A stretch of 64,000 nucleotides of DNA from Treponemataceae bacterium. GTDB taxonomy: Bacteria; Spirochaetota; Spirochaetia; Treponematales; Rectinemataceae. The position numbers and the translations under genes were made by a program. Position 1 is the first letter of the stretch. Every line of letters begins with the position of its first letter. The stretch spans positions 352,001 through 416,000 of the forward strand of contig CAXXGJ010000018.1 in the NCBI GenBank assembly GCA_963677895.2, written 5' to 3'. This document shows, in pieces, positions 13,752-30,908 of this stretch. The notes under the pieces are model-generated. The model searched no databases. It saw nothing but the letters and a program-made list of their open reading frames with translations, and was not told the DNA's origin.

Positions 13752-13831
13752 GTGATCTGCCACCCGAAAACTGGACACTCATAATGTCAATAATCGCATT
13801 TTAATGCGATACTACAGGAAGGAGCGGTCCA

Positions 13832-14059: not shown

Positions 14060-14079
14060 CGCTTGCCCGGAAGCATGAG

Positions 14080-14895
14080 TTGGTCGACAACCTTGTTGCC
14101 ACCTACCGGGTAAGCATCAGGACCGCCTGTAAGGTCCTATTGCTCAACCGTGCAACCTATTACTACAAGCCCCATCCTGATGATCAGGAAGTCTTGCGGA
14201 TGAAGATTCGCGATTACGCTACGACGCGGGTGAAGTATGGCTATCGAAGGATCCATGTACTTCTGCAACGCGAAGGCTTGAAGATAAACAGAAAGCGCGT
14301 CTACCGTCTTTACTGTCTAGAAAACCTCAACATGCGGCTCAAATCACGAAGAAAGCAGGTGGCGAGGCCTCGAATAGAACTGGTAAAAGAGAGTCGAGCT
14401 AACGAGGTATGGGCAATGGATTTCGTCTCAGACCAGCTTTTCAATGGAAAGTGGTTCAGGACTTTGACGGTCGTTGATGTTTTCACCCGGGAATGCCTTT
14501 GTACTCATATAGGCCAATCGATGAAGGGCACGGATGTGGTCCAGGCGTTGGAACGATTGTGTATTCATCGGCAAAAACCATCCGCAATTCGAGTCGACAA
14601 TGGGCCTGAATTCGTTTCGAAGGAACTTGATCTTTGGGCTTACCAGAAAGGCATTGGGCTTGTGTTTTCCCGCCCTGGTAAACCTACAGACAACGCGTAC
14701 ATCGAATCTTTCAACGGGAGTTTCAGGGAAGAATGCCTTCAGACACACTGGTTTTTGTCCCTGGAAGATGCAAGAATCAAGATCGATACATGGCAGAAAG
14801 ACTACAATGAATTCCGGCCGCATAGTTCTCTGGGATACAAAACTCCGTCCGAGTTTGCATCTTGTGTTGATGGTCCAATTAGCCTGTTAGGCTGA
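14080..14895 (+). CDS. IS3 OrfB, DDE integrase domain (expressed by -1 frameshift)
   Basis: [25 protein letters not shown]. Confidence 0.93.
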   Translation: MVDNLVATYRVSIRTACKVLLLNRATYYYKPHPDDQEVLRMKIRDYATTRVKYGYRRIHVLLQREGLKINRKRVYRLYCLENLNMRLKSRRKQVARPRIELVKESRANEVWAMDFVSDQLFNGKWFRTLTVVDVFTRECLCTHIGQSMKGTDVVQALERLCIHRQKPSAIRVDNGPEFVSKELDLWAYQKGIGLVFSRPGKPTDNAYIESFNGSFREECLQTHWFLSLEDARIKIDTWQKDYNEFRPHSSLGYKTPSEFASCVDGPISLLG

Positions 14896-14948
14896 TTTTC
14901 TAACTTGAAAAGTGTCCAGAAACTGGGGGACCTTCAATTCCACCTTAT

Positions 14949-15119
14949 TCAGTTTCTGTAGTGGTCCTGCTCGATGGGCTCAGCATAAATCTCGGACGAA
15001 AGGGCAAACAATCTGCCCATGTAGTCTGCCACATTCGCGGCTGGCAGCGATGTAAAAGCTTTTACAGGTTCCGGAGAAGGTAAATCGCGTTTCAGGAAGA
15101 CTCTAAATCCAACAGACAT
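14949..15119 (-). pseudogene. Truncated RraA/HMG-aldolase family gene
   Basis: MSVGFRVFLKR...LPAANVADYMGR N-terminus with RBS AAGGAG; the frame breaks after about 45 codons, next to the IS3 end. Confidence 0.65.
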
Positions 15120-15262
15120 ATAAGCTCCTTTGCGTCCTTTTTGAGCTTTATCAAAAATTGAATACCTGTGGGCTTTTTCAACAAAAAAACAAGTATCATC
15201 GTATATCACTGTGATCATCTTTAATTTTTCTAGGGTTTTTTCTCATCTTCATAGCGATACCT

Positions 15263-16321
15263 TCAGGCGCTAGTTTCGAAAAATGCTAAGCAAGGATTGC
15301 CAATAGCTGTCCAAAGTTGATTGTCTTCTACAATGATTATACTTGAATAGACAGTAAGACTGCCCTTTCCATCTTCATGCCTACAAATAGAGTTACATGG
15401 TCCATTTTCATGATCAGAAGCAATCTGTAGCATATCTTGAAAACGTAATGATCCACGTTTTAGTTGAAGCATCTCCATAGCTCTATCAAAGCGCGAATAG
15501 GTTGATGGATAATCCTTGTGGCTAGGGTTATATTTTTGTAGATCTGGGGAGTGGAAATGGTTGGTCCGGACCAATAAGCCATTTTCTTGTTCAATAATGC
15601 AGCATTGATTTTCTGTGGTTTCCACAACAACTGCCTTTTGATTATCAACTAATAATAAATTGGATCTTGTTACTTTATAAGGATTCTTGTCCCTAAGATA
15701 TGCTAAAGCATCATCTACATTCTTACAAATACGGAGCAGTGTATGAGGAGTAAAAGTAAATGCAAGATGTCCAATCAATTCTAAATCTAAGGGAATCCGT
15801 GTTGGACCAACTCCGGTTGTAGTTAGTGCAAATCCGTGATTATTTATACCGCTTCCTGGGAATGTGATACTTCCTGCCATATCTACTTCGGTAATCCTTG
15901 TTCCGTCGCTGAATTCTCGACTAAGTACTACATGAAGGACACGGTCATGCATATCACGGTTTTTTATAATATAGGTCTTTTTATCCAAGGTTGCAGAGCT
16001 ACTTGCAACTATTGCACTACACTCTTCAGAAGCCCTCATGCGCTCAGTAAAAGAGGAAAAATTGGCATTAAGTAACTTTATATCATATAAAGGGAGCTCG
16101 GAACCTTCAGCAATGCCGTTAATCTCTTCCTCAATTTCAGGGTTGTTTGAGAATACATTAGAAAAGAATTGATCAATCACTGAGTTATAGATAGCGAAAT
16201 CAACTCTTTTAGTTTTTAAAGAAGATTTTATAATTTCAATGTTCGTTTCGATCTGTTCTTTTGCTGACCGCCCATGAATCAATCCTTGCTCATAATAGGA
16301 ACCCAATAACTTGATTTCCAT
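15263..16321 (-). CDS. Peptidase C45 family (acyl-CoA:6-APA acyltransferase-like, Ntn hydrolase)
   Basis: G..HG, EI.GIAEG, ECSA autoproteolytic Cys, KNRD, GINNHG, RTNHF. Confidence 0.85.
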   Translation of the reverse strand: MEIKLLGSYYEQGLIHGRSAKEQIETNIEIIKSSLKTKRVDFAIYNSVIDQFFSNVFSNNPEIEEEINGIAEGSELPLYDIKLLNANFSSFTERMRASEECSAIVASSSATLDKKTYIIKNRDMHDRVLHVVLSREFSDGTRITEVDMAGSITFPGSGINNHGFALTTTGVGPTRIPLDLELIGHLAFTFTPHTLLRICKNVDDALAYLRDKNPYKVTRSNLLLVDNQKAVVVETTENQCCIIEQENGLLVRTNHFHSPDLQKYNPSHKDYPSTYSRFDRAMEMLQLKRGSLRFQDMLQIASDHENGPCNSICRHEDGKGSLTVYSSIIIVEDNQLWTAIGNPCLAFFETSA

Positions 16322-16758
16322 ATACTTCGCACCCTCCCAAGTAACTGATGTTCAGCTTTAAAATGTCGGATAAACAAATAATACAATTTACTAATAGTAC
16401 ATGTTCTCTACATTGTCAATGGTAATAACGAGACTTGGACTATTTGGGTTACATTCTCTCAGTTCAGCAGGATTTATTGAATATTAATGGGTGAAATAGT
16501 ACAGTCTATTTTAAATCAAAATTATCATGTCTCTAATAATACTTAATAATTTATTAAAATAGATGCAGTATGATGTCTATTCTAACACTTAGTCTATTTA
16601 ATTGTTTACTTCATAAGTTGCCTTACTACTCATTATTAACAATGCTGTTTAAAATTGTTGCATTTTCATATCGACCTGTAACTTAATTTGATTTCTCGAT
16701 TTCAATCTAAAACCTTGTATTAAGGAAAGCTATTGTTATTATTATTGATGAACTGGGG

Positions 16759-16786
16759 TTGACGAGTAACAATCTTTTGATATAAT
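16759..16786 (+). promoter_or_regulatory. sigma70-type promoter
   Basis: TTGACG-16 bp-TATAAT upstream of the RpiR gene. Confidence 0.55.
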
Positions 16787-16841
16787 CAATTGTAGAGGAT
16801 AGTGTCAATAATAATCTTAAGAGAAACGATCTTGAAGGCAT

Positions 16842-17702
16842 ATGATGAAAATTGAAGAAAGAATAAAAAACGCACGTTTGACGAAAAAAGCAAAGATAAT
16901 AACACAATTCCTGCTTGATCACCCTTCAGAAGCAGCGTTTATGTCAGCTACTAGTATAGCAAAAAAACTCAATGTCAGCGATGTTATGGTGATTCGCTTG
17001 GCTCGTACACTCGGTTACGATGGCTATTACTCTATGCAAAAGGATCTGCAACAGAAAATGATTGCAGAAATGGAGACAGCTCGAAAAAGGAAACCTTCAC
17101 TTTCAGAAAAAATTATCCATATTGGTAAAGAGCAGGACCAGAGTATCTCCGATATGACTTTGAGCAAAACATGGGAAAATTTGCAGGAGACTGTGTGGAA
17201 AAATCCTGATAGTAAATATGTTGATGCTGCAAAGATCCTGAGAAGCAGCCGTAAAAAATATATTGTTGGCTTTCGAGCAAGCGCTGCGATGGCGTTATAC
17301 CTTAGTATAAAGATGAGGTTCGTCTCTGATGATGTCATTACCCTAATGAATGCTGATCCAAATGAAGTGGATCAATTGTATAGTATGCAAGAGGAAGATT
17401 GCCTTGTTGTTTTTTCAATGGGACGATATCCGAGGATGTCGCTTTTTGCCATTGAGATTGCAAAAAAGCGCCGTGCTAAAATTATTGTCATTACCGAAAA
17501 AGAAACATCGCCTGCTGCTTTTGGAGTCGATATCGTTTTTATTGCTAAAAGCGATGGACTTAGCTTTAGCGCGTATGCGGGGCCATTGATTACGTGCGAA
17601 ATCTTAGTCACACATTTAGCAAAAGAAACTTGGCCTCTTCGTGAACTTAGGATTGCAGAGATAGATGAGGAGTATAGTCAGATGAATTTCTTTTTGACAT
17701 AA
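16842..17702 (+). CDS. MurR/RpiR family transcriptional regulator
   Basis: N-terminal HTH (IAKKLNVS..MVIRLARTLGYDGY) and SIS domain. Confidence 0.9.
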   Translation: MMKIEERIKNARLTKKAKIITQFLLDHPSEAAFMSATSIAKKLNVSDVMVIRLARTLGYDGYYSMQKDLQQKMIAEMETARKRKPSLSEKIIHIGKEQDQSISDMTLSKTWENLQETVWKNPDSKYVDAAKILRSSRKKYIVGFRASAAMALYLSIKMRFVSDDVITLMNADPNEVDQLYSMQEEDCLVVFSMGRYPRMSLFAIEIAKKRRAKIIVITEKETSPAAFGVDIVFIAKSDGLSFSAYAGPLITCEILVTHLAKETWPLRELRIAEIDEEYSQMNFFLT

Positions 17703-17806
17703 GCATTTATATTAACTATTTTAACAAGGTCTTTTTATTCGATCCCTATTAATATTCTAAGTAAAACTGTTCATAAATTATTACTAAGCTATTTTCTTTT
17801 CAGACA

Positions 17807-18298
17807 TTAAAACACTTTTGCCATAACTACACCAGAAATCATTATCAAGACAATACCTAATCCTAGCTCGAACACTAATCCCGATACTCTCGCTCTAAGG
17901 ATTTTTGCTTCTACTTCTTCTTTGTAACTCCTCCACGATGCCTCCGAGGTTCTCAAGGCCGTCACCAGCTCCAGCTGCATTTTCTCCGATTCGGCCGATT
18001 CTATCTTCGATTTTTCGAGCGCTGTCTGCAGGGATTCCAAGTCCTTCAAGAGCGCTTCTTTCTCGCTCCTCAATGCTTTCAACTGCGCCGATAGCTCCCT
18101 CGATTCCCTCAACGCTTCGCTGGCCTCCTTCTTCAAGTCCTCGTTCAATATCTTTAATTTCTCGATCACTGAGGCCGCTTCCTGGAGGAGTGCCTGATCG
18201 TCCAAGGCTTCCCACTTTGAATCCGATGACTGCGCCCCCAATGCCCATAAGCAGAAGAGCAGCAGCAATAAAAAAGAACTTAGTCTTCTTTTCCACAT
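17807..18298 (-). CDS. Secreted coiled-coil protein with C-terminal TM (spanin-like), 163 aa
   Basis: Start MWKRRLSSFLLLLLFCLWALGA; long heptad region; C-terminal hydrophobic helix; last gene of the module. Confidence 0.55.
   Translation of the reverse strand: MWKRRLSSFLLLLLFCLWALGAQSSDSKWEALDDQALLQEAASVIEKLKILNEDLKKEASEALRESRELSAQLKALRSEKEALLKDLESLQTALEKSKIESAESEKMQLELVTALRTSEASWRSYKEEVEAKILRARVSGLVFELGLGIVLIMISGVVMAKVF
17895..18296 (-). CDS. Nested alternative-frame membrane-anchored coiled-coil protein (i-spanin-like)
   Basis: GTG start 2 nt after the ATG of the host ORF; MEKKTKFFFIAAALLLMGIGGAVIG TM followed by helical repeats. Confidence 0.45.
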   Translation of the reverse strand: MEKKTKFFFIAAALLLMGIGGAVIGFKVGSLGRSGTPPGSGLSDREIKDIERGLEEGGQRSVEGIEGAIGAVESIEERERSALEGLGIPADSARKIEDRIGRIGENAAGAGDGLENLGGIVEELQRRSRSKNP

Positions 18299-18483
18299 TC
18301 CTTTCCCTTCAACGAGGCCACAAGACCCTTTATCGATTCGAGCGTCGTATATCCCGCCAGTACGAGCACGCCGAGCATGGCCGCAATCCCTGCCCATACA
18401 CCGGTCATCTCACCGTTCAGTGCCGCCGACCCCAAGCAACCCACCGAGCAGAGTGAGTAGAGGAGGGCGAGCCCTCTCCTCAT
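18280..18483 (-). CDS. Small two-TM protein, holin-like
   Basis: 67 aa, two hydrophobic helices, charged C-tail, RBS GGAG. Confidence 0.5.
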   Translation of the reverse strand: MRRGLALLYSLCSVGCLGSAALNGEMTGVWAGIAAMLGVLVLAGYTTLESIKGLVASLKGKECGKED

Positions 18484-18524
18484 AGACCACGCTCCATCCT
18501 ATTCCTGCAGGAAGCCAGATTTCT

Positions 18525-18962
18525 TCATGCTGCCCGCCTGAAAACACGCAAGGATTCGATCTTCCCGTTCTTAACCGTTCTCGAGTTTTTTATGGGATCC
18601 CATTTCACAAGCCTGAAGTGCTGGTGCTTTATCGCCTTATCCCTACAGCATTCTATCCATTCCCAGCCCTCGACTACTCTTTCCCCAGGCTTTGCCCTGT
18701 AGTCGGCATTCTCTTTGTCGCTCCTCCATCCTCGTTCACCGGTTACCAGTTTCATTAGCCCATCCCGGTCGGCCACATAACAATTGTCGGGGTTGTCCCT
18801 GTTCTCCTCGTCGTACTCGATGAAGCCCCGCCTTATCCCTTCCAGGATCAGGTTTACCGCCTCACCCTCCGTCAGCCCGGGCTTCCCCAGTTCGCAGATG
18901 CACAGTGCCAGGCAGGCTCCTTCCCCCAATTCGGCAAGGAAGGTCTGTATGCCTTCCCTCAT
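18525..18962 (-). CDS. Phage lysis-region protein (DUF261-like, possible Cys/His hydrolase)
   Basis: GIQT...LGEGACLALC N-terminus; HF...WDP..NSRTVKNG C-terminus; position in the lysis block. Confidence 0.45.
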   Translation of the reverse strand: MREGIQTFLAELGEGACLALCICELGKPGLTEGEAVNLILEGIRRGFIEYDEENRDNPDNCYVADRDGLMKLVTGERGWRSDKENADYRAKPGERVVEGWEWIECCRDKAIKHQHFRLVKWDPIKNSRTVKNGKIESLRVFRRAA

Positions 18963-19333
18963 GGCCGATCCCCAGAGCCCCTTGCTCCCTTAGCCTTGCC
19001 TTCTCCCTTTTCTTGCCCCGCCAGGCTTTCGAGAAGATACTCGTCAAACTCCTTCTTGGCCCCCTCCATCAACTCGATAGCCTTGTCCACATTACCGTTG
19101 CACTCGCCATCGCGCTGTGCTTCGAGCGTTGCCTTCAGGCTCACTATCTGCGGTCCCTGCAACCTGAAAAGGATCGTCACGTTCGATCGCATACAGATGA
19201 GTTCAGAGAGGATCTTTTCCATGCTTCGCTTGGAGTTGAAGAGCCATTTCAGGTTTAGCCAGATCGCCCCGATCATCGCCGCGGCGCCAATCCCGGCCGC
19301 CGCATCCATCAACTTGTCCAGCATCGGGTTCAT
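18959..19333 (-). CDS. Phage membrane protein (single N-terminal TM, holin/antiholin-like)
   Basis: MNPMLDKLMDAAAGIGAAAMIGAIWLNLKWLF followed by a soluble helical domain; ATGA overlap with the next gene. Confidence 0.5.
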   Translation of the reverse strand: MNPMLDKLMDAAAGIGAAAMIGAIWLNLKWLFNSKRSMEKILSELICMRSNVTILFRLQGPQIVSLKATLEAQRDGECNGNVDKAIELMEGAKKEFDEYLLESLAGQEKGEGKAKGARGSGDRP

Positions 19334-19353
19334 TCCCGCCTGCCTTATTTGTA

Positions 19354-20475
19354 TCAGCCTGAACGCAGCGCTTCCCAAAGCTCATTGGTTTCTGCGAGGG
19401 CAGCGCTGAAGGCTCCTTTCGCGGGGCGCCCGAAACCCAAACGGATTCCGGGACCATCCTTTGTCCATCGTTCTTCTATGGATTCAATCGGTACGGTGTA
19501 CCAATGGTCGAATGCTTTTACGCTACAGAGATCTCCCAGGAAATAATCCCTATCTAGAACGATAGGCGATCCTGGCGGTACTTCGGCTTCGAGACAAAAA
19601 GTCGTACCATAGTTGCCTAACCGCGCAGCGCCATAGCTCCTTAAACTTTCATCATCCTCACAAGCCCAGGCTTCGAGCTCTCTCTCAAATCGCAATGTTC
19701 CTGACGGTTCCTCTCCTTCCCAAATAGTCGCCTTTATTCTTCCTTCATTCGTTTTTGCGCCCCGCAGATACAGCGTATTGCTGTATCGCGAATTTCCTTC
19801 TATGAGACTCGCGCCGCTAAGGCTGTCATAGTCTTCAGAGAACAGGGCACGCCCGTTTGTTTCCTGCGCCGCGCTCCGGTCGGTGCCAATAAGGATATCG
19901 AAAGCCATCGTCCTCGTGCTCGCGTCAAAATCAATCGTGAATCCAGTTTCCGTGGCTTTACCGCAACGGGATAGCTCTGTAAGCATGTTCGAAAACGCAC
20001 ATCGCAGTGAAATTTGTTTCCCTCGCTCCTGATTTGCTTTAAGGCGAAGGCATTCGAATTTACGTGTTTCTCCGGCATCCATGCAGCATTCTCTGGCCAC
20101 GATCGTCTTCATCACCGTTTCAACGGGAGCGGTCGCTTCAAAAAAACCTGAGAGTTCGTCGGGTATCACCAATCTTCTTCCAAGAATGCTCTTCGCCTCA
20201 TATCCCCTGGCGATAATCCACGGTGTTCCTTTTTTTAATCGTTTCTTCTCCGTCTCCACGATGATCCCGAGCCGTTTTCCGGAATTCCCCGCAACTATGA
20301 AATTCCCTGGCTTTAAGGCAGAATCTTCGGCTTTATCCAGTGGCATCGAAAGCGCAAAATCACCCGGCGCTAAAAATCTGCGTACGTAATAGAATTCTCC
20401 GAAAGCATCAATGTCAGCCAATAGATCAAGCTGTTCACTAAAAATTCTTATGGGAATCGTGGCGTTCATCGTCAA
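19354..20475 (-). CDS. Siphovirus ReqiPepy6 Gp37-like baseplate hub/tail protein
   Basis: R.F...GDF.L, GII, L.RR, GTDRS..Q...ALFSEDYD, SG..RFE, DY.LGD motifs. Confidence 0.75.
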   Translation of the reverse strand: MTMNATIPIRIFSEQLDLLADIDAFGEFYYVRRFLAPGDFALSMPLDKAEDSALKPGNFIVAGNSGKRLGIIVETEKKRLKKGTPWIIARGYEAKSILGRRLVIPDELSGFFEATAPVETVMKTIVARECCMDAGETRKFECLRLKANQERGKQISLRCAFSNMLTELSRCGKATETGFTIDFDASTRTMAFDILIGTDRSAAQETNGRALFSEDYDSLSGASLIEGNSRYSNTLYLRGAKTNEGRIKATIWEGEEPSGTLRFERELEAWACEDDESLRSYGAARLGNYGTTFCLEAEVPPGSPIVLDRDYFLGDLCSVKAFDHWYTVPIESIEERWTKDGPGIRLGFGRPAKGAFSAALAETNELWEALRSG

Positions 20476-21935
20476 GCCTCGAACTTATATCCCCAACTCA
20501 CGTTGCTTCCGGCCGTAATTACTACGAGTACTCCATCATCATTTTTGTAGATAAATTTTATGCAATCATTTTCGGGTATTTCCCATTTCTTTATCCAGCT
20601 TGCACCCATATCATTGCTAATGTATATTTTTCTGCGGCATCCCATATAGATGGTTGTTCCATCGACAAAGATTGCTGAATAATCTATTTGTCCATCAATT
20701 TCCCTGCCATCATCCCAGGTAATCCCATAGTCCGTACTTTTAAAAAGTTTTGCGTTGTGCTCTAGCCCTGCTAAAACTATGCCGTTTCCTATGTGCTTAA
20801 TAAAAGTATATGGGTATTCTTCTATCCCCGTTGATTTTACTTCTGCCCATGTTACGCCGGAGTCAGTCGATCGAAACATTTTCCCGCTGGCATAACTTCC
20901 AGCGAGTACCACCGTCCCGCCAACACTCTCCATTACTTTTAATCCTTCATTGCTGCAAGTTCCGATATAGCTCCATGTTAATCCGCCATCTATAGAGCCG
21001 ATTATCTTATCTCGTGAAGATCCCGTTGCGATAATGTTTGATGTGCTGAGGACACAGAATGTGTCGATGAATTCTTCGTACTCAGAATCCCATACCTCTG
21101 TCCATGGACTGAGATAATAAGATGATGCCCTGAATATTTTACCATCTGTTCCTGCTAAATATGCTGATCCAGTATTGGCCAGGCTACGAATACTAGTGCT
21201 CACCGTAATTTGATCTATATTTTTCAGAGTTATTCCATGATCGTTGCTGTAAGCCAAGTGGTTGTTCTTATCATATCCAGCAAGTACTACATCACTTTCA
21301 AGCCGCAGCGCACAATTGATAGTCCCTGTCTCTAAACTATGATTTTCGACATGCATGAACTTTACAAAGGAAATTCCGTTCTGACCTGCATTCAGCGCAT
21401 CAGCCTTCGCTTTTATTATCCTTCCATAAACCTGCCCTTCTACAAGCGCATCGATCGAGTCGCTGTTCGTTATAAAGACCGGCCTCATCTGCCGCTCATC
21501 GGTCAGCGTCAGTACATTCGGCCCCGCCGAATGATCGATAAGGATTTTTTCCACTTCGATGTCATCATCGCTTAGGTAAAGGGGCGCGACAGGGTCATCG
21601 GCTTCCCCCCCTTTTAGAACAGTCGCCACCATCGTCCGCCGGTATCGATCGATGCATATGGCGATCCTGTCATACCGCTTTTTCCCAAGCGTTGGCTCAT
21701 CCAAGGTCAATGATAGTGGCGATGTGTTTCTATAATAGACGCCTCCCTTCATCGCCACGCCTTTTCCCATAGTGATCGTGAAACTTCCATCTGATGTCAC
21801 CGCGAAAGCATCATCGGAATGCGCCAGAATTCCATCGGCGCGCTGCATAGCCTCGTGAAGTTTTTCGTTCATGAATCGCGCCGTATATTTCCTGTCGCCC
21901 GCAACCCCGGTGAAGAACCCGGATTCTTCCGCCAT
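20472..21935 (-). CDS. Phage baseplate/receptor-binding protein with Asp-box beta-propeller
   Basis: N-terminal MAEESGFF...GDRKY...RYDRI phage structural motif; Asp-boxes SNDHGIT, SIDGGLTW, STDSGVTW, STDYGITW, SNDMGASW. Confidence 0.7.
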   Translation of the reverse strand: MAEESGFFTGVAGDRKYTARFMNEKLHEAMQRADGILAHSDDAFAVTSDGSFTITMGKGVAMKGGVYYRNTSPLSLTLDEPTLGKKRYDRIAICIDRYRRTMVATVLKGGEADDPVAPLYLSDDDIEVEKILIDHSAGPNVLTLTDERQMRPVFITNSDSIDALVEGQVYGRIIKAKADALNAGQNGISFVKFMHVENHSLETGTINCALRLESDVVLAGYDKNNHLAYSNDHGITLKNIDQITVSTSIRSLANTGSAYLAGTDGKIFRASSYYLSPWTEVWDSEYEEFIDTFCVLSTSNIIATGSSRDKIIGSIDGGLTWSYIGTCSNEGLKVMESVGGTVVLAGSYASGKMFRSTDSGVTWAEVKSTGIEEYPYTFIKHIGNGIVLAGLEHNAKLFKSTDYGITWDDGREIDGQIDYSAIFVDGTTIYMGCRRKIYISNDMGASWIKKWEIPENDCIKFIYKNDDGVLVVITAGSNVSWGYKFEA

Positions 21936-21944
21936 ATCCTCTCC

Positions 21945-22832
21945 TTATGCTTCCAGATGTCTCCCTGCAAATTCAAACAGTGCTTCGGATCCTTCCCCGG
22001 GGGAGTCATCGCCAATTTCGATGATATTTTCTCCCGGCTTGAGCTGCCAGAACGTCGATAAAAGGTCCATGTAATGCATCCCGTTGCTTTCTATGCCATG
22101 GCGGTGCAATGTTATGGTTCTGTTGACAGGTTCCGTGTTCACCTCCAAATACTCTCCAGCGGCAATAATGCCTGAAATCCTTAAGATCTCCCCGCTTGTC
22201 GTATTCCGGATGAATGGATTAACGATGGGCCCGCTGAAGCGAATTCTTAACGGCGCCGCAACATTTCCTTGATTGTTGATAGTCTTCGTCCTGTTTCCCG
22301 TGTGCAGTATGGTGGCGAATTCGATACCGTCCTCATCGAACTCGATCCCTTCCTCGCTGAACTCTGTCAATGCCGCAAAGTAGGCAACCTCGGAAACTTG
22401 AGGCTCTATATCTATGAAATAGGGCTGCCTGCAGACAAATTCCACCGAGAATCGCTGCCACGCCTCACTCCATGAACGTTTGACAAAGATTGGCTCACGC
22501 GAGGGCTGCGCCCCAATCTTCCGCCGCCTTCCCAGTCGCTCTACAAACAAGGTTCCTTCCCTCGTATGAATCTTCAATGCCTCACAGATAGTTCTTCTTT
22601 CCGACGCTTCATCTGCCTCCTCGAGCCCCTCGCAATCGATAGCTGCGTCTATCGCTATGTACCGTGGTCTTGTCGTTGTTGTTATCGCAATAACGCCATC
22701 AATCCCCGGTCCTTCCGAAACGCTTATCCCCAGCGGAGGCGTTTCAAGCCCCGATGCTGTAATCAGCTTAAGCCTTCCCGTACCGAAGGATACCTCCTCT
22801 TCGTCGATCGTTCGAAAGGTAAGCACCGTCAC
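21945..22832 (-). CDS. Distal tail protein (Dit, Sipho_tail family)
   Basis: GIDG..., F.C..PYF, INNQGNV.AP..I...GP..NP.I.N, FWQLKPGEN.I. Confidence 0.8.
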   Translation of the reverse strand: MTVLTFRTIDEEEVSFGTGRLKLITASGLETPPLGISVSEGPGIDGVIAITTTTRPRYIAIDAAIDCEGLEEADEASERRTICEALKIHTREGTLFVERLGRRRKIGAQPSREPIFVKRSWSEAWQRFSVEFVCRQPYFIDIEPQVSEVAYFAALTEFSEEGIEFDEDGIEFATILHTGNRTKTINNQGNVAAPLRIRFSGPIVNPFIRNTTSGEILRISGIIAAGEYLEVNTEPVNRTITLHRHGIESNGMHYMDLLSTFWQLKPGENIIEIGDDSPGEGSEALFEFAGRHLEA

Positions 22833-22981
22833 CAGTCCTCTCCAAAGGCGATGAGCCTCGATACTCTTTCGCTCTCTCGTTTTTCTTCCAGGAGATCGGG
22901 AACAACCTCATGTTCAATGGTATTCGCCATCGTTTCATCGCTTGATTCATCGTTCCTGGGTTCCTTTTTTTCGATCGCCAT
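22829..22981 (-). CDS. 50-aa mini-ORF at the tail tube/tape measure position
   Basis: ATG overlaps the upstream stop (TGATG); its stop overlaps the Dit start (GTGA). Confidence 0.5.
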   Translation of the reverse strand: MAIEKKEPRNDESSDETMANTIEHEVVPDLLEEKRESERVSRLIAFGEDW

Positions 22982-23346
22982 CACCGCATCCTTGCGCCTG
23001 AATAGCGCGATACAAGGCGGCTCCATTCTGGCCGGCCGGCATCATGGCGTACCGTCGCTTCATGATGAAACCCAATATTCTCCATCGCAGTATCGACACG
23101 ATCGGCAAGCTCATAAGCGCATCCTTCTGCAATCATCCCTATGGTGCATTCCCACATCTCTGCGATAACGCTTGTCTCGCCTTCCAGAATCGGTGCGCCC
23201 CTCGCGAGTTCAATAAGCATAAGGGGAGGGGAGTAAGGCGCCTTCTCTGCAGGGTTCCCTACAATAATTCTGTCGGCCGATCCCACCAGCTCAAGTATCC
23301 TTGCATTCTCTGCCAGTAAGGAGCGTATATCCGTTCTACCGCTCAT
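22981..23346 (-). CDS. Putative tail terminator/completion protein
   Basis: 121 aa; IR.LL....I..LVG..DRI...P......P and A..VD..M...GF pattern; position after the head connectors. Confidence 0.55.
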   Translation of the reverse strand: MSGRTDIRSLLAENARILELVGSADRIIVGNPAEKAPYSPPLMLIELARGAPILEGETSVIAEMWECTIGMIAEGCAYELADRVDTAMENIGFHHEATVRHDAGRPEWSRLVSRYSGARMR

Positions 23347-23639
23347 GCCGACTCATCTTCTTTTTCAAGCGTGGCTTCCGTATGCTTAGGAAAACGGCGT
23401 GCTTCAATCACCCTGAAAAGCCCCCTTGTGCAGGTAATCCGATCATTCATGCCGATTTCGATCTTTTCTCTCGTGATGAGCGATAGGCGCTCCTTTCGTC
23501 CCATACCTTGCTTCTCGCTTCTCGCAGGCCATAGGCGAGCCCTGATTGTCCCTCCCGCCTCGTAGGTAGCTTTGTATGCGTGGCATGCATCGAAAGAGAG
23601 CGAGTATTTCAAGAGCTCCACTGCCTCAATGTTCCTCAT
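23343..23639 (-). CDS. Putative head-closure (stopper) protein
   Basis: 98 aa; I.A.L.P, I...DRI....G.F.V pattern; ATGA overlaps on both sides. Confidence 0.5.
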   Translation of the reverse strand: MRNIEAVELLKYSLSFDACHAYKATYEAGGTIRARLWPARSEKQGMGRKERLSLITREKIEIGMNDRITCTRGLFRVIEARRFPKHTEATLEKEDESA

Positions 23640-24124
23640 ACCCGTTCCAGGAGCACCTGTGCCGGGCACCGAATGTGCGCCGATAACAGCCTGTAAATGG
23701 AAGGAAAACGCCGTACCGTTTCGGCCCCAGCCGCATACCTTCGCGTTACTCCGCCTTCTCTCTCTTCCTTTAAATATCCACCCTCGCTCTCGCTCGCCGC
23801 TAGAATGCCGGGATCCACGAGCTCAAGGAGTGCGGCCTCGCACTGCGCTTCGATAAGCCACTGTGGTATCGCGCCGCTCCAAAGCGCTTCCATTCCATAC
23901 CGGGGGTATGAAAGCCGCTGTATCTTCGAAATCCTCGCTCCTGGCCAAAGACCGCCATACATCCGTTCCAGATAGTCACAGGCGCGGATCAGGGCCGCAC
24001 TTTTGGCATCGATACCTGCATTTCCCCATGACGTATTTCCTCGCAGCAGATGATAGCTATCAGCCACACTCACTTCCGTGTAGCTGTCGGCCCCGGCAAG
24101 CCCGCTCCCGTTCTCGATTGTCAT
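23636..24124 (-). CDS. Head-tail adaptor (DnaT-like phage protein family)
   Basis: MTIENGSGLAGADSY..V..AD.Y...RG...W...K.AALIRA.DYL, Q.L.YPR, IP..L..AQCE.AL. Confidence 0.75.
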   Translation of the reverse strand: MTIENGSGLAGADSYTEVSVADSYHLLRGNTSWGNAGIDAKSAALIRACDYLERMYGGLWPGARISKIQRLSYPRYGMEALWSGAIPQWLIEAQCEAALLELVDPGILAASESEGGYLKEEREGGVTRRYAAGAETVRRFPSIYRLLSAHIRCPAQVLLERV

Positions 24125-24669
24125 GCCATGTACCCGTAGACCGTCACCACAAGATCGCTGCCCTCGGCAAAATCGCCGTCGGCCATGACATCGATGCCCT
24201 TCCCGGCACGGCATCCAAGCGACATCCCAAACTCAGCCTCAAGCGTAACCCCTTCGGATGCGGGGCCAATGTAATTGCCCGGAATAAGTTGGGTTGCCAG
24301 AATACCCGCAAAACGGTAGATGAGATCGGTTCCCGAATCGGTGATATATACCTTCGTTCCTGTTCCTCCCGTCCAGGCAGTCTCGCCGTCGAGGAGGAGA
24401 AAGAACCCCAAGGGATAGATCTTCTTTCCCTCGGGGATATCCGCTTCCAAAAAGCTATGGACTCGTGTGCCGGCCGTGAGCGCGGGCAATCGTATCGTCT
24501 TTGAGAAAAATTCCTGCCCACCCGCCTCGGCGCTTTTAATCGTGTTTACCGATTCCTCAAGCTCTTCCAGAGCCTTTCCCAGCCTCATCAGCTCCTGCCC
24601 CAGAAGCGCTCTCTGTCCATCGGGGCTCAAGCGGTCGAGAATCCCTGCCTTGTCAGGATCAAGCGCCAT
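24121..24669 (-). CDS. Hypothetical phage protein (possible capsid decoration)
   Basis: Directly follows the coat gene; beta-rich C-terminal part; RBS AGGGGGA. Confidence 0.5.
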   Translation of the reverse strand: MALDPDKAGILDRLSPDGQRALLGQELMRLGKALEELEESVNTIKSAEAGGQEFFSKTIRLPALTAGTRVHSFLEADIPEGKKIYPLGFFLLLDGETAWTGGTGTKVYITDSGTDLIYRFAGILATQLIPGNYIGPASEGVTLEAEFGMSLGCRAGKGIDVMADGDFAEGSDLVVTVYGYMA

Positions 24670-24678
24670 GCTGTCCCC

Positions 24679-25821
24679 CTAACCTAAGAGCAGGCCGACA
24701 TGCTCATGCATCACTACCTTGAACCCCCACGCCAGGTGCAGCTCCCAAGTGATCTGCCCGTACTGGGCGATTTCCAGCAGCAGGTAAGAGAGGCCGCGAA
24801 GATCCGAAATTATGGCCTGGATCATGGTCGGATTCTCGGGCATCACCGGAGGTCGCATAATCCCCACCACTGCTTCCCGCTCGAAAGCCAGGCAGGGCGT
24901 GTAGCTGTCGCCGATCGTTATGGCACTTGAGGTGTCGATACCCAGTCGTACTCCCGGTCTTCCGATCGTGAGCAGCTGCTGCATGGCGGTTATCTCGTTG
25001 TGGTTGATGTACCGATTGGTGTCACCCGCGAAGGCGATAATGTCGCCTTCCTTTATGATCCCCGTTCCCGAAGCTCCCGACAGCGTCGTGCTTACGTCGC
25101 CTTTGACCATCGCCTTCGTCGCGTTCGTCAGATAATTCGCGCCCGTCCCCTTCACATGCTGCGCGATCTGCGCGCTCGTGCGAATCTGAAATCCAAACTG
25201 ACGCTTGATGACACCGCTCCGCCGCTCCTCGTCGCTACCCGCCGCGTAAGCCTGCTGAATTGCCGAAAGCTTCAACAGGTTCGTCTCGGCGCCAGAATCG
25301 CAGACGAACTGCGGATCGGCCATAGCGCAGCCGTTATCCTTCAGAATCCTCCGAACCGCGATCAGATCATCCAGGGATGAGGCAAAAGGCGTCGTCCCCG
25401 CCACGCCCGCCGCTCTTGAGGCCCCATGAACAATCGCCGTCACGCAGTCAGCTTCCGCCGCATTCCTTAAGGAGCGCATCTCCTGCATCAACTTTAGCCT
25501 GAGCCACTCCTTGTCGGTCCCTGAGTTCTCAAGACTCCGCCGCTGCTCTCCCGTCAGATGCCAGCTCCGCTTCTTCGACGCCGTGATCTTCACGTTCACC
25601 GTCGACGCCGAATCCGAATCCCCCTGGGGCGTCACGTTCCCCGGAATAAAATCCACCGGCGTTCCGCCCGAAGCGATCGGCACCGCCACAATATCGTCTT
25701 TAGCCACCTGCTTGTCGTCGAAGCTCATGGTCACCGCCTGCAGGGCTCCCGTATCTTCTGCTGAAACCTCCTGCGCCGCTGAAAACAGAATCGGCGCAAG
25801 ACTTGTGAATACATTGGACAT
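24679..25821 (-). CDS. Major capsid protein, P22 coat-like (HK97 fold)
   Basis: MSN.FT.L.P.L..A...VS.E..G, AG.AGTTPF, R.IL.DNG, W......AWG.K......LLG. Confidence 0.85.
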   Translation of the reverse strand: MSNVFTSLAPILFSAAQEVSAEDTGALQAVTMSFDDKQVAKDDIVAVPIASGGTPVDFIPGNVTPQGDSDSASTVNVKITASKKRSWHLTGEQRRSLENSGTDKEWLRLKLMQEMRSLRNAAEADCVTAIVHGASRAAGVAGTTPFASSLDDLIAVRRILKDNGCAMADPQFVCDSGAETNLLKLSAIQQAYAAGSDEERRSGVIKRQFGFQIRTSAQIAQHVKGTGANYLTNATKAMVKGDVSTTLSGASGTGIIKEGDIIAFAGDTNRYINHNEITAMQQLLTIGRPGVRLGIDTSSAITIGDSYTPCLAFEREAVVGIMRPPVMPENPTMIQAIISDLRGLSYLLLEIAQYGQITWELHLAWGFKVVMHEHVGLLLG

Positions 25822-25837
25822 CTTCTAATGCAGAGGC

Positions 25838-26575
25838 TCAATCCTGATTGAGCGTGCCTCCATGCGCGATAAATGCTGCGCGTTCCTTTGCCGGTAGCCC
25901 CCAAAACTGCTCTACAGCCATGCCGCTTGTCATGTCTCCCGCCACCGGAGCTCTATGCTCCCCGGCGCCGCCCCCCGCGTTCTCCTTCGCGGCGATAAAC
26001 TCCTTCCCTTCGTCGGAAGCCAGAAACTCTTTCACCCAATCAGGCAAATTCTGTTTCTGCTCCACACCATCTCGTGTGAATCTCGCCACTGCCGTCCTGA
26101 TATCTCCCTCTCCCTCAACCGCAAGGATACCTTTCTCTTTGATCAAAGCTTTAGCCGCTCCAATCAGCGAAGGTTTTACATTGGCCTTGGATAGTTCGGC
26201 CGTAAGGCCAGAGTCGAGCAGAAGCCTTGTTACCGCGGCCTTCTCTTCATTGAGATTCTTTGTGAGCAATGTTTCCTTATCGGTGCTTTGTCGTGTAGCG
26301 GCTTCGAGAAGTTTTTCCTTCTCGGCGAGAGTGGCTTTCGTGGTTTCGAGCTCGGCCTTCAGCGTCTCGGCCTCGCTGATAACCTTCTCTAGCTCCTCAG
26401 GGCTTTTCCCTGAGAAGGCCTCCATGCGCCGTTCGAATTTCTTGATCCTGGCCCAGTCGCGGGAGGCGAGAGGCTCGATCCTGTCCACGAGGGAGATGAT
26501 CAATTCCTTATCAGCGCTCTCGCCCTTCTCCAGCTCGAATTTCAGATGAGTAATGATGTCTTTCAGACTTGTCAT
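25838..26575 (-). CDS. Phage scaffolding protein
   Basis: Coiled coil; C-terminal GGGAG...F..L...ERAAFI..GG; immediately upstream of the coat gene. Confidence 0.7.
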   Translation of the reverse strand: MTSLKDIITHLKFELEKGESADKELIISLVDRIEPLASRDWARIKKFERRMEAFSGKSPEELEKVISEAETLKAELETTKATLAEKEKLLEAATRQSTDKETLLTKNLNEEKAAVTRLLLDSGLTAELSKANVKPSLIGAAKALIKEKGILAVEGEGDIRTAVARFTRDGVEQKQNLPDWVKEFLASDEGKEFIAAKENAGGGAGEHRAPVAGDMTSGMAVEQFWGLPAKERAAFIAHGGTLNQD

Positions 26576-26817
26576 TGGTCATGGTCTATCGTCGGGGGTA
26601 ATATCCGCCCCGCCGGCCGTGCGCAAGGTCTATTGGAAGGTTCTATCGCTTTTGCAGGAAATGCGCGTTACCTGTAAAAGCGGGCAGGCAGGAATTTTCC
26701 GTCCTGTACGGATCGCATGGCAGGTTTGCTACCATAGGTGTATGATAAAGTATACATCACTTGCATGTAAAGAGGGCAGTATCTTATAATCTATTTTTTG
26801 ATTGTTTTTAAAATTTC

Positions 26818-27936
26818 TTACATGTTCCAGATAGCTTTAAAAGCATCTATTATCAAATCCTCATCACCTATTTGTAAACCAATTGGATTTATTACAATTA
26901 TGCCTTTGTTAAGATAGAAAGATGTTACATATATAGGTGGATTGTTCTGTAATAGATGCTTAGCAATTTCGAATGCAGATAATCCCATTTTTTTTTCATC
27001 TATTTTAATCTGTATACGTGGAACCGGTCTTCCAACTTCGTCTGGAAAAATTCTCTTAAGGACGGTATGTGGAAGATTTTTCAAGGAATCTTGTATGAAC
27101 GAGACTTTTGATTCCCATATTTTCTGCTCAGCTTCGTGGTTCCTATTCATATATATTTCTAAAGCTGTAACTAAGCCTATAATTTCTTCTTTACCTACTT
27201 TCATTGGCCGTCCAATTCCATATTCAGGCCCGGCTTGGAGCCGACATGATTCTATAAGATCCTTATCTCCAAATATAAATCCTGTTCCTGGTGGACCATA
27301 AATGTGCTTAGCTCCACTTACAGACACAAGGTTTGCTCCCATAAGCGAATAAGCTCTTAATTTTTCTGGAGGATAATTTGCTACTGCAGCATCTATAATT
27401 ACTGGAATTTTGTGATCTTTACCAATTTGTATGAATTTTTCTAGTGATACCATCCCCAAATCGTTAGATAATTCACTAAAGGCATATAATAAAGCTACCG
27501 TATTCTCGTTTATTGAATACTCAATTTCTTCTATTCTTGTTGAAGATGGCAATCCAACTTCGATAACCTTGACGCCAGTTAGTCTGATGCCTTGATCATA
27601 TCCAGTTCTTTGTCCTTTCTGGATAATTATCTCCGATCCATTAGCTGCTGCCGGTAAATCTAGCATCTTAGCTGTATTACTATGTGTTATACATGCGGAT
27701 ACTGCAAGAAGAAGTCCTGCAGCTGCACCAGAAGTTACGAGAGCTGACTCAGCATTTATAAGTTTTGCAATGGCATTACCGGCGCTCTTGTGAAGTTCAG
27801 TCATATCGATATAGCTTTTTGCAGCTTCAACCATAGAGTTGAGAACAGCATCATCCATGCAAGATCCGCCTAATCTGGAATTATTCGCAGAGGCATTAAT
27901 TACTCTTTTGACTCCTAGAGTTTCATAAGTTGCCAT
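26818..27936 (-). CDS. SelA-like PLP enzyme (DgaE / D-glucosaminate-6-P ammonia-lyase family)
   Basis: VINASA..SRLGGS, VTSGAAAG, IIDAA, SGAK, IGRPMKVGKE. Confidence 0.82.
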   Translation of the reverse strand: MATYETLGVKRVINASANNSRLGGSCMDDAVLNSMVEAAKSYIDMTELHKSAGNAIAKLINAESALVTSGAAAGLLLAVSACITHSNTAKMLDLPAAANGSEIIIQKGQRTGYDQGIRLTGVKVIEVGLPSSTRIEEIEYSINENTVALLYAFSELSNDLGMVSLEKFIQIGKDHKIPVIIDAAVANYPPEKLRAYSLMGANLVSVSGAKHIYGPPGTGFIFGDKDLIESCRLQAGPEYGIGRPMKVGKEEIIGLVTALEIYMNRNHEAEQKIWESKVSFIQDSLKNLPHTVLKRIFPDEVGRPVPRIQIKIDEKKMGLSAFEIAKHLLQNNPPIYVTSFYLNKGIIVINPIGLQIGDEDLIIDAFKAIWNM

Positions 27937-27948
27937 ATCTTCCCCCCA

Positions 27949-28677
27949 TCATAATTGTTCAGTTAATTCTTTATTATTTTTGCTGTTGTATGTCTTTTTG
28001 ATATTTTGAAGGTGCTTATTAAAATGATCGTATAAGATTTCAAGTGCTTTTTTCTCATTTCCTTTAATGAATTGATCTAATAGTCTCCTGTGATCATCAA
28101 TTGAAATTCTAGCAGAGTTAGTAAATGATTCTTGCATAGACAAATTCCTAAGAATGTTGATATGAAGACGTAAATCATCGATTATATTCTTAATCCAGAC
28201 ATTGCCAGATGCTTCATAGATAAGTTCATGAAACTTGATATCAGCATCCATGTAGTCTTGGTAGCTGCTAGTATCAATGAGTTTTTCAGAAATATCTATC
28301 GCTTCTTTCATTTTCTCAAATACCCTCGGTTCTTTAATAGATAGCATTTTTTTTATAGCAAGTTCTTCTAAAGCTACGCGCACTTCAATTATAGATTCAA
28401 TTTCTTTTATGCTTAACTTTCTCACAAAGTAGCCTTTCCAATGTACTTTTTCTACTATTCCTCTTTCAACGAGAAAGGAAAGAGCTTCACGAACTGAAAT
28501 ACGGCTAATTTTTGTTTCATCTGAAAGCTCTTGATCATTAATTCGATCGCCGGGCAGCCAATGACCTTCAAGTATTGCTTTTGTAATAATAAGGCTTAGG
28601 CTCTCTGAACGGCTACGCGAAAGCATTGATACGTCAGAGGAAAATCTTGTTGTTTTTATATTTTCATCCAAATTCAT
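27949..28677 (-). CDS. GntR/FadR family regulator
   Basis: PGDRI, ISRISVREAL HTH; FCD domain FHE.I...SGN. Confidence 0.9.
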   Translation of the reverse strand: MNLDENIKTTRFSSDVSMLSRSRSESLSLIITKAILEGHWLPGDRINDQELSDETKISRISVREALSFLVERGIVEKVHWKGYFVRKLSIKEIESIIEVRVALEELAIKKMLSIKEPRVFEKMKEAIDISEKLIDTSSYQDYMDADIKFHELIYEASGNVWIKNIIDDLRLHINILRNLSMQESFTNSARISIDDHRRLLDQFIKGNEKKALEILYDHFNKHLQNIKKTYNSKNNKELTEQL

Positions 28678-28952
28678 GATTAGTTACCTCAAAATATTAG
28701 AATATTTTAATAAACGAAATTTCTTTATCCAGAATTTGCAAATATTCAAATAGTTGCATATATAGTTCAACTGCTATTATGTATTCTATTTTTTTATAGC
28801 TCAATTTCTTTAAAACCACAACTCATCATAATATATATATTATTATAATGCAATAGTTTTAAATTTAAAATTTATAATTGACAATATTCAAAACTTGACT
28901 TATGGTTGTTTATATAGATTAGGTCTCTTGAATTGGGCTTAAGGAGCGTAGA

Positions 28953-29684
28953 ATGGTACAGCCTATCCTTGAATATTGTGGAGTAGATAAAAATTATAAA
29001 AATTTGCATGTCTTAAATGGAGTTACTTTCAGCATTGAAAAAGGGGAAACTGTTGTAATCATTGGAAAGAGCGGTTCAGGTAAAAGTACCCTTTTAAGAT
29101 GTACAAATATGCTTGAGCCAATTCAAAACGGTCAAATTCTTTATAAAGGGAAAAATGTTAATACTTATAAACCCAGAGATTTAAGAGAGGAGATAGGGAT
29201 CGTTTTTCAGAGTTATAATTTGTTCCCTCATTATACAGCATTAGGAAATTGTAGTTTAGCATTAAGAGTTGTAAAAGGAAAATCGAAAGAAGAATCAGAT
29301 GAAATCGGCATGGAAATGCTAAAAAAAGTTGGGCTAACAAATAAAGTTGATTGTTTCCCTCAGCATCTGTCAGGTGGCCAACAGCAACGTGTAGCAATTG
29401 CTCGCTCTTTGGCATTAAATCCTTCAATAATGATGTTTGATGAAGTAACCTCTGCTTTAGATACTGAGCTAATTGGAGAAGTTTTGCGAGTAATGGAAGA
29501 TGTAGCACTCGCAGGAATGACAATGATAGTAGTAACTCATGAAATGGGTTTTGCGAGACATGTTGCAAGTAAAATTGTGTTCTTAGATGAAGGTATAGTC
29601 ACTGAAACAGGATCGCCTGATCAAGTTTTTGATAATCCAAAAAATGAAAACTTGAAAAATTTTTTAAATGCGATTTTAAAATAA
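28953..29684 (+). CDS. Polar amino acid ABC transporter ATP-binding protein
   Basis: GKSGSGKST, LSGGQQQR, DEVTSALD, VTHEMGFA. Confidence 0.93.
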   Translation: MVQPILEYCGVDKNYKNLHVLNGVTFSIEKGETVVIIGKSGSGKSTLLRCTNMLEPIQNGQILYKGKNVNTYKPRDLREEIGIVFQSYNLFPHYTALGNCSLALRVVKGKSKEESDEIGMEMLKKVGLTNKVDCFPQHLSGGQQQRVAIARSLALNPSIMMFDEVTSALDTELIGEVLRVMEDVALAGMTMIVVTHEMGFARHVASKIVFLDEGIVTETGSPDQVFDNPKNENLKNFLNAILK

Positions 29685-29718
29685 CTCAAATAGCTCTGGT
29701 TGTATTAAGGAGATTTAT

Positions 29719-30192
29719 ATGGCAATTATCGAAGCAAGATTACTTGAATTAGGAATTGAGCTACCAACTGATGCTATTAATAAAAATGCTCTATTTGTTC
29801 CTTCTGTAATTGTGAATAATATTTTATATACTTCAGGAGCAGTCGCAGGGGTTGGTGATAATAATCATAAATATACTGGAAAAGTTGGAAGTGATTTAAC
29901 ATTGGATGAAGCAAAAGTTGCAGCTCGCAAATGTGCAATTAATCTCATTACTTTCATTAAATATTCAGTTGGAGATCTCGATCGAGTTAAACGGATTGTT
30001 AATATTATTGGATATGTAAACAGTGCGCCAGGTTTTAATCGTCAACCAGAAGTACTAAATAGCGTATCCGAGTTATTTCTTCAAGTTTGGGGAGAAAATG
30101 GTAAACATGCTCGTACGGCTCTTTCTGTAAATGAACTTGGCTCAAATGCATGTATTGAATGTAATGCTGTTGTAGAAGTAAAAGATAAATAG
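29719..30192 (+). CDS. RidA/YjgF family protein
   Basis: LYTSG, GKVG, GYVNSAPGF, GKHARTA. Confidence 0.9.
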   Translation: MAIIEARLLELGIELPTDAINKNALFVPSVIVNNILYTSGAVAGVGDNNHKYTGKVGSDLTLDEAKVAARKCAINLITFIKYSVGDLDRVKRIVNIIGYVNSAPGFNRQPEVLNSVSELFLQVWGENGKHARTALSVNELGSNACIECNAVVEVKDK

Positions 30193-30200
30193 AATATAAT

Positions 30201-30908
30201 ATGAACTATCAATTTGATTTTTCTATTATTTCAATAAATTTGCCGTCATTGCTTCAAGGTGCAGCAAATTCGTTAATAATATCATTTTTATCTATAGTAT
30301 TTGGATTTTCATTAGGTTTAATTTTTGCTTTACTACGTTCATTAAATATAAAAGCAATTAAATATTTCATAATTTGCTACGTAGAGCTTATTAGAAATAC
30401 ACCTTTCATTGTTCAATTATTTATTGTTTATTTTGTACTTCCTCGTATAGGTATTTATGTAGATGCTTATCCAGCAGGTATTATAGCACTCTCATTAAAT
30501 TGTGCTGGATATGCAACAGAGATTTTACGCGCTGGTATTGAATCTATTCATGAGAGTCAGATTGAAGCCGCACGATCCTTAAGTATGACATATTTTCAAA
30601 TATTTAGATATGCTATTCTAAAACCAGCATTAATTACTATTTTCCCTTCACTATCTAGCTTATTTATTACAATATTGCTTGGCTCAAGTGTACTTTCAGC
30701 AATTTCAACACCAGAACTAACATCTATTGCGTATTCAATAACGGCATATAAATATAGACACTTTGAAATATTTTCATTTATTGCAGTATTCTATTTATTA
30801 ATGTCAAATATTCTATCAATAATATTTAAGTATTTAGAGTATCGTTTTTTAAGTATTGAAGGAAAGCAGTCGATTATGAAGTTTTTCCATAATGTTTTAT
30901 TAGGATGA
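30201..30908 (+). CDS. Polar amino acid ABC transporter permease
   Basis: YVELIRNTP, EILRAGI, Q.EAA.SL. Confidence 0.92.
   Translation: MNYQFDFSIISINLPSLLQGAANSLIISFLSIVFGFSLGLIFALLRSLNIKAIKYFIICYVELIRNTPFIVQLFIVYFVLPRIGIYVDAYPAGIIALSLNCAGYATEILRAGIESIHESQIEAARSLSMTYFQIFRYAILKPALITIFPSLSSLFITILLGSSVLSAISTPELTSIAYSITAYKYRHFEIFSFIAVFYLLMSNILSIIFKYLEYRFLSIEGKQSIMKFFHNVLLG

Follow-up and report, generated by a model that had tools for sequence, protein, structure and literature searches.

The combination of the distal tail protein Dit with a ReqiPepy6 Gp37-like baseplate hub is found in temperate siphophages such as phiCD6356, the Paenibacillus phage Dash, the Acutalibacter phage Fontainebleau and the Methanoculleus virus Blf4/L4768. 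The tailed phages with related Dit and hub proteins carry the tail tube, one or more chaperones and a tape measure protein (TMP) of 801-1733 aa in the slot upstream of Dit, possess a tail-completion protein, and have the fibre after the hub. The tube, the TMP and the tail-completion protein are regarded as essential in the long-tailed phages. The relevant part of the NF5 study (PMC12917162) describes the last TMP residues as a tripod on the Tal plug, and the corresponding part of the 80alpha study (PMC11661146) has three TMP C-termini bound to Tal, with tail nucleation from Tal, TMP and Dit being assumed.

Two other kinds of particle are close in form. RcGTA joins a siphophage-type neck and baseplate to a very short tail, with a short plug TMP and periplasmic DNA release, according to a section of PMC7296036, and its tail of five rings is called the shortest in the section of PMC8718954 that treats it. 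Unlike the lineage described below, RcGTA still has a tube protein, with a TMP filling the tube. The podoviruses, such as T7 and P22, resemble the morphology predicted for this lineage, i.e., a head that bears a short, tube-less appendage. Their tails are composed of adaptor/nozzle or needle proteins, along with internal ejection proteins, whereas the appendage considered here would be a siphophage terminator-Dit-hub stack, with no ejection protein evident. A tailed prophage from the same order (G149) has a capsid protein 52% identical to that of the lineage and the holin-like and 145-aa genes in common with it, but differs by a minor head protein, a tail-completion protein, a probable tube (269 aa), a probable chaperone, a TMP of 764 aa and a different baseplate.

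The window, i.e., the whole stretch of 64,000 nucleotides analysed from a Treponemataceae assembly (G000), contains a minus-strand operon which, judged from its gene content, is a siphophage module minus the tube. The ribosomal protein L2 of the host is nearest to that of PDB 8fmw, the Borrelia ribosome, which suggests a spirochaete host; FlaA was not found, but that search had no match in any control genome either. The lineage of the operon resembles the above siphophages in the Dit (about 24-27% identity at best) and the hub (22-28%), and a protein of only 50 residues, the mini-protein, matches the C-terminal motif of their TMPs. No report of such a tube-less terminator-mini-Dit architecture was returned by a word search of the open-access literature.

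The operon and its smallest gene

The operon runs from 26575 to 17807 in the order of scaffold, capsid, a 182-aa gene, adaptor, probable stopper, terminator, mini-gene, Dit, fibre, Gp37-like hub and lysis-type genes, all on the minus strand. The head scaffolding protein (25838..26575; phrog_206, E 3e-7) and the major capsid protein (24679..25821; phrog_283, E 4e-60) are followed by the 182-aa protein (24121..24669), which matches no known family and is probably a capsid decoration. A role of the tail tube was considered for this gene and rejected, since it was undetected in 3/11 loci and is thus not an essential tube substitute. In the Atlas, the 182-aa protein lies nearest to clusters of viral hypothetical proteins (0.91), and there are weak leads to cement proteins. 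The neck comprises the head-tail adaptor Ad1 (23636..24124; phrog_477, E 6e-31; PF20557), a 98-aa probable head-closure or stopper protein (23343..23639), to which position, size and a weak phrog_615 match (E 0.057) point, and the 121-aa tail terminator of the gpU / SPP1 gp17 fold (22981..23346). The terminator family matches phrog_78 in nine of 12 homologues (best E 1.3e-4), and in the fold comparison the AlphaFold model (pLDDT 88) came closest to the phiXa head-to-tail connector, to lambda gpU and to further neck/terminator entries; by this profile and fold, the candidacy of the 121-aa gene as a short tube protein was rejected.

On the other side of the mini-gene lie the genes of Dit (295 aa, GTG start, 21945..22832; phrog_33, E 2e-25; PF22768; PF05709), of a 487-aa fibre or probable receptor-binding protein (20472..21935) and of the hub (19354..20475; PF14594, E 1e-44). 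The role of the fibre is suggested by its virion structural N-terminal domain (phrog_1220 and phrog_9534) and BNR repeats (PF02012). The hub has the Tal / gp27 / Mu gp44 fold, its model (pLDDT 89.5) being best matched by the Bxb1 tail tip and also by Mu gp44, 80alpha Tal and NF5 Tal; its C-terminal helix is of low confidence, and no lysin domain is present. The tube-less loci have these genes as Dit-fibre-hub, whereas Dash, phiCD6356, IMGVR 15682261 and Fontainebleau have Dit-hub-fibre. Siphophage morphogenesis is thus represented in the window by the adaptor, the stopper (by position and a weak match only), the terminator, Dit and the hub, with no tail tube, chaperone, full TMP or tail-completion protein in the operon of the tube-less loci.

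The lysis-type genes include a putative holin-like membrane protein (18959..19333), with a hydrophobic N-terminus and a tblastn match to the G149 tailed prophage, a 145-aa protein (18525..18962) whose position suggests the endolysin slot, and a conserved arrangement (17807..18483) of a 67-aa membrane protein with an overlapping membrane-anchored coiled-coil pair (17807-18397 and 17895-18296), which appears spanin-like. The 145-aa gene, common to the G149 prophage, has a weak DUF261 match (E 0.025) and is possibly an unrecognised lysin; a peptidase-type gene occupies this slot in a related locus, G019. Upstream of the scaffold gene, a promoter-like site and a GC-rich leader (26573..26771, minus strand) of about 190 nt are conserved in the window, L005, L009, L010, L021, L023 and L029; they comprise a sigma70-like site and hairpins rich in GC, in which two-sided change was seen at 8/29 predicted pairs in at least one of the seven sequences. 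The scan with the promoter consensus by itself was at the chance level (8 sites found vs. 7.7 expected). The leader is possibly a regulatory RNA or a packaging-related site.

The mini-gene itself (22829..22981, minus strand) consists of an acidic variable part of residues ~1-24 and a conserved part of residues ~25-50 resembling TMP C-termini. A reading made earlier from the sequence only had proposed that this gene begins in the stop of the terminator gene, ends over the start of Dit and occupies the slot normally held by the tube, chaperones and TMP. The minus strand from 22981 to 22829 does encode exactly those 50 aa, the ATG overlapping the TGA of the upstream 121-aa gene (TGATG) and the TGA overlapping the GTG of Dit (GTGA), and in the tailed phages that share this Dit and hub, the tube, chaperone and TMP genes do lie there. 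A version of 65 aa from the in-frame upstream ATG at 23026 was rejected, as in 14/14 canonical copies it is the short start that lies over the stop of the terminator gene. An assembly artefact was also rejected: the contigs of two studies run through the mini-gene junction unchanged, one of them, from a single run, covering 14939-30500 with 0 differences to the window, of which it may be the source, and the other covering 18763-26540, where 3 differences occur and no contig joint falls at the mini-gene. Programmed frameshifting into Dit, or a chaperone-type slip, was rejected as not conserved, with an A-run near the start of the window copy not kept in the other copies. Searches with the mini-protein of Pfam, PHROGs, the ESM Atlas and phage records gave nothing usable, and those of the PDB sequences gave chance matches to a dioxygenase only.

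A chance ORF is not consistent with a frame that stays open and keeps its coupling in 14 loci, at a codon-position variability of 0.20/0.14/0.47 (the third position 0.47 vs. 0.14). Residues L30, E33, K34, R35, S41, A45, F46 and E48 of the conserved part are invariant in 13 copies, and the core shows pS of 0.81 vs. pN of 0.23 over all their pairs; purifying selection acts on the last ~25 residues, and the mini-gene is a real, conserved gene under coding selection. The N-terminal part, of 17-29 residues, is unconserved and is acidic in 11/13 copies.

Distribution and genomic setting of the lineage

A related Dit was found in 18 records, comprising the window, its paralogue on C30 of the same assembly, G019, two viral contigs and 13 metagenome contigs. 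Two of these (L022 and L032) begin inside Dit and were left out, so that 16 loci spanning the terminator-Dit interval were compared. None of the 16 contains a tube, chaperone or long TMP in this interval, and 14 have a mini-gene of 43-55 aa with the same double overlap (that of L031 being identical to that of L010). The two others are G019, with a divergent 62-aa peptide in the same slot which is missed by the mini-protein HMM, and L030, which lies within the clade and has no mini-gene, a slightly longer terminator gene (3751-4137) overlapping the Dit start directly. The distance from the end of the capsid gene to the start of Dit is 1274-2093 bp in all 11 loci measured. The ten tube-less loci tested form one capsid-protein clade (SH-aLRT 100) with G019 basal, in a quick tree of 42 rows. 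Thus, the absence of the tube, chaperone and TMP block, which the sequence-only reading had noted for the one locus, extends over a whole clade, and its proposed check of conservation in sister loci came out positive, both by the 14/16 occurrence and by the coding selection. The mini-gene marks a lineage and not a one-off deletion.

Against 1.84 billion representative proteins, the mini-protein profile gave 20 matches, all of them proteins of 40-65 aa, and no longer relative was found at E <= 10. Among 78 capsid relatives (50-58% identity), those listed with at least 4 kb of downstream sequence contain no mini-gene, and the longer of them have tail modules of the usual size, as judged from gene lengths. 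The lineage is rare, being found in 2/69 genomes of the family, and among 401 genomes of the phylum searched by alignment, only the assembly of the window matched. The scan of the genome collection with a single Dit as a query yielded one weak unrelated locus. The terminase scan of viral contigs yielded three relatives with 32-51% identity, two of them long and without a structural-gene match in the available sequence.

The terminase and/or portal genes are situated upstream of the operon in C30, G019, L009 and L021, at a distance from the scaffold gene of 4.3-11.9 kb filled with unrelated cargo. Such a portal-scaffold cargo hotspot was observed at 9065-14711 of L005, 477-12272 of L007, 508-9246 of L009 and 1938-6257 of L021, in the place where the tailed relatives have the minor head protein; the cargo genes of G019 (L007, ~2700-7300) are separated by repeats which we take to resemble integron attC sites. 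The C30 copy has an integrase gene just before the terminase, with integrase and replication initiator genes linked to it. In view of this link and of the sporadic occurrence (2/69), the lineage appears prophage-like rather than a fixed host locus; it does not have the character of a gene transfer agent in the sense of a fixed, taxon-wide locus free of integrase and replication genes.

The window copy is accompanied by no portal and no terminase, the only ones found in G000 being on C30, whose paralogue has both, and it consequently could not make DNA-filled particles alone. As far as gene content indicates, this copy is a remnant whose frames are intact and which has a conserved promoter-like leader of its own, apparently usable only with the packaging genes in trans. 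The assembly is 92.8% complete with 5.5% contamination; the similar integrase genes near the two copies make it probable that both belong to one cell. In the run X3, the operon contig (depth 7) ends at 26519-26540 of the window, and the upstream contig has a depth of 15.8, a step at the operon 5' end that may reflect a mixture of strains or a breakpoint. Transposase-like genes in several copies and an integrase (11597-14895, 31216-35988 and 46910-48283) flank AT-rich islands of amino-acid uptake and catabolism around the element.

Likeness of the mini-protein to tape measure ends

For the comparison, 104 tailed-phage loci with related hubs were used. Dit was located in 100 of them, and the preceding gene encoded at least 200 aa in 95; of the rest, no gene was called before Dit in two, two others had a short or truncated one, and Blf4 was represented by its annotated TMP instead. 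The resulting 96 sequences, of which only five comparator TMPs are annotated as such in their records, the rest being assigned by position and length, were reduced to 36 non-redundant C-termini for an HMM, no mini-protein being included. These C-termini share an ending made of a strand, S/T-P-S-E, a basic helix and R-x-L-A with a hydrophobic residue. The mini-protein of the window scored 8.3 bits with this HMM, higher than all 3,932 control C-termini (maximum 7.5), which were the ends of long six-frame ORFs of G000, some of them not genes. Among 21 mini-proteins (20 non-redundant ones and the G019 peptide), 15 exceeded the 99th percentile of the controls and six their maximum, the 62-aa peptide of G019 standing at the 99.9th percentile. 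The profile-profile comparison by hhalign gave a probability of 42-61% (P 8e-5 to 2.6e-4), the two C-termini being aligned in register. The match was retained by both halves of a split TMP set (11/21 and 15/21 mini-proteins) and after removal of the seven most similar-ending rows (13/21), while the 12 control profiles, i.e., those of the tube and chaperone N- and C-termini, the terminator C-terminus, the TMP N-terminus and residues -72 to -37, the pre-TMP gene, the C-termini of Dit, hub and capsid, and the presumed TMP ends of the capsid relatives with other baseplates, reached an hhalign probability of 1.65% at most.

The signal of homology amounts to ~20 residues of a charged helix. It appeared only with the profile of 36 ends, an earlier HMM comparison, made against seven TMPs and the genes beside them, not being significant, and the TMP-end profile matched no solved TMP in the PDB. 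The conserved part of the mini-protein is nevertheless likely homologous to the TMP C-termini of the Dit/Gp37-hub phages, as far as profiles allow, and the earlier suggestion that it resembles the terminal helix of TMPs is thereby supported by a match that is specific and above the controls, if modest. The position agrees with that of a siphophage TMP, the mini-gene adjoining Dit directly upstream. With 43-55 aa, the mini-protein is without the long helical body of hundreds of residues that sets the tube length, and its maximum 19-residue hydropathy of -0.24 denotes no hydrophobic membrane segment like those of TMPs. By analogy, it may work as a hub-binding TMP end, but it stands apart from the TMPs proper in length, N-terminus and hydrophobic segments.

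It may be asked whether the mini-protein is unrelated to TMPs, being either a small chaperone of assembly, what remains of a gpT-like chaperone, or a novel peptide, which would also maintain the translational coupling of the terminator and Dit, with a likeness due to convergence of short charged helices. Such a relationship would agree with the weak reverse test, in which the mini-protein HMM placed just 2/36 TMP ends above the 99th percentile, with the two large searches that yielded no long relative, with the profile of the pre-TMP gene, at which the mini-proteins had a median percentile of 0.94 and 2/21 were above the 99th, and with L030, which lives without the mini-gene. However, not one of 200 composition-keeping shuffles reached the score of the window mini-protein on the TMP-end HMM, both chaperone profiles and that of the pre-TMP gene gave an hhalign probability of 0.3% or less, and the amino acids conserved despite synonymous change exceed the needs of a spacer. 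An origin unrelated to TMPs is considered unlikely.

Proposed zero-ring tail and entry of DNA

With moderate confidence, the mini-protein is taken here for the surviving C-terminal end of a TMP in a lineage that would have lost the tail completion, the tube, the chaperones and the TMP body, kept the terminator, Dit, hub and fibre, and come to use this end as a plug in the hub of a zero-ring tail. By analogy with the TMP ends in the solved siphophage baseplates, three C-terminal helices of the mini-protein would lie in the lumen of the hub trimer, where they might help in the nucleation of the Dit-hub initiator and in sealing the channel. There being no tube to measure, the hexamer of the terminator would cap the Dit ring directly, which seems feasible because the tube-like face of Dit normally receives a tube ring that shares its fold; the baseplate would accordingly dock on the terminator ring of the neck and not on the head itself, as the sequence-only reading had it. 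The acidic N-terminal part would fill the lumen of Dit and the terminator, facing the DNA end. After the fibre binds the receptor, the hub might open and the stub be expelled, with the DNA following. The mini-protein would then keep only the plug and nucleation roles of a TMP. The absence of the mini-gene in L030, the window copy being without portal and terminase, and the absence of long database relatives count against this reading.

A tube and a full TMP could also be supplied by a co-infecting tailed phage, with the mini-protein acting as an adaptor, or as a decoy competing with the TMP end of the helper. Tailed prophages do occur in the same order (G149 and G215), and several copies, including that of the window, have no packaging genes in the available sequence, which makes some dependence in trans likely anyway. 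No relative of a tube, chaperone or TMP was found in G000 by the protein queries from tailed relatives and four Pfam families, although these searches are insensitive and the assembly incomplete: PF10145 also misses the evident TMPs of G149 and G215, and PF17289 misses the C30 terminase. Moreover, an own terminator, Dit and hub with a mimic of the TMP end would be expected to hinder the use of a helper TMP, and such a supply of the tail from outside likewise appears unlikely.

A very short tube built of extra terminator or Dit rings, for which the mini-protein would be the true ruler of one or two rings, is judged improbable. The stopper, terminator, tube and Dit of RcGTA do share one fold, as stated in the part of PMC7296036 on this subject, and the length of the mini-protein is narrow (43-55 aa in 14 loci). 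However, the N-terminal length varies almost twofold without sequence conservation. With a helix rise of ~1.5 angstrom per residue, the 17-29 residues beyond the plug would span one ring or so at most (~40 angstrom per ring).

The sequence-only reading had finally proposed an in-frame fusion of a tail-tube start with a TMP end, which would have come about by deletion and would suit the start codon overlapping the terminator stop, where a tube gene is expected to begin, and the TMP-like C-terminus, but which is very improbable and was not borne out, since the N-terminal part, mostly acidic and varying even between the mini-proteins, resembles neither the tube starts (hhalign probability 0.05 to 18 hand-picked tube N-termini, at least one row of which is chaperone-like) nor the TMP starts (0.11-0.15), the best non-mini match among the six-frame segments of L001-L123, the 78 capsid relatives included, had E 3, and even an ancient eroded fusion, possible as such, would have no functional meaning now.

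For a plugged zero-ring tail, the passage of DNA is the least secure step. No membrane segment was found in the head, neck and baseplate proteins of the lineage, so the DNA probably reaches the periplasm only and needs host uptake. Periplasmic release with subsequent host uptake, as in RcGTA, would be the simplest route. The particle may also be non-infectious or depend on a helper. The comEC gene of G000 says little in this respect, as it is present in 10/14 control genomes, too. Infection by TP901-1 depends on the N-terminus and the first hydrophobic region of its TMP, as reported in a part of PMC5099701, and SPP1 deprived of the tail-completion protein releases its DNA outside the cell instead of routing it in, according to a part of PMC11099176. 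The lineage has neither the TMP N-terminus nor the tail-completion protein nor a minor head protein of the G149 type, and this counts against a working virion. An active temperate phage, in which the portal, adaptor, stopper and terminator are stacked onto Dit, hub and fibre and sealed by a TMP stub of 50 residues, with no tube, TMP channel, tail-completion or pilot protein, is suggested only tentatively.

The clade separates two sets of TMP roles, the baseplate nucleation and sealing on the one hand and the length control and membrane channel on the other, and the stub reading predicts an undescribed terminator-Dit interface. It bears on what a minimal siphophage tail is, on whether short tails can arise from long-tailed ancestors and on how DNA may cross two membranes without a TMP channel, and about nine small proteins make these questions testable. 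If it is true, a podovirus-like form would have come about by reduction from a long tail, and the lineage would provide a natural minimal model of the TMP duties.
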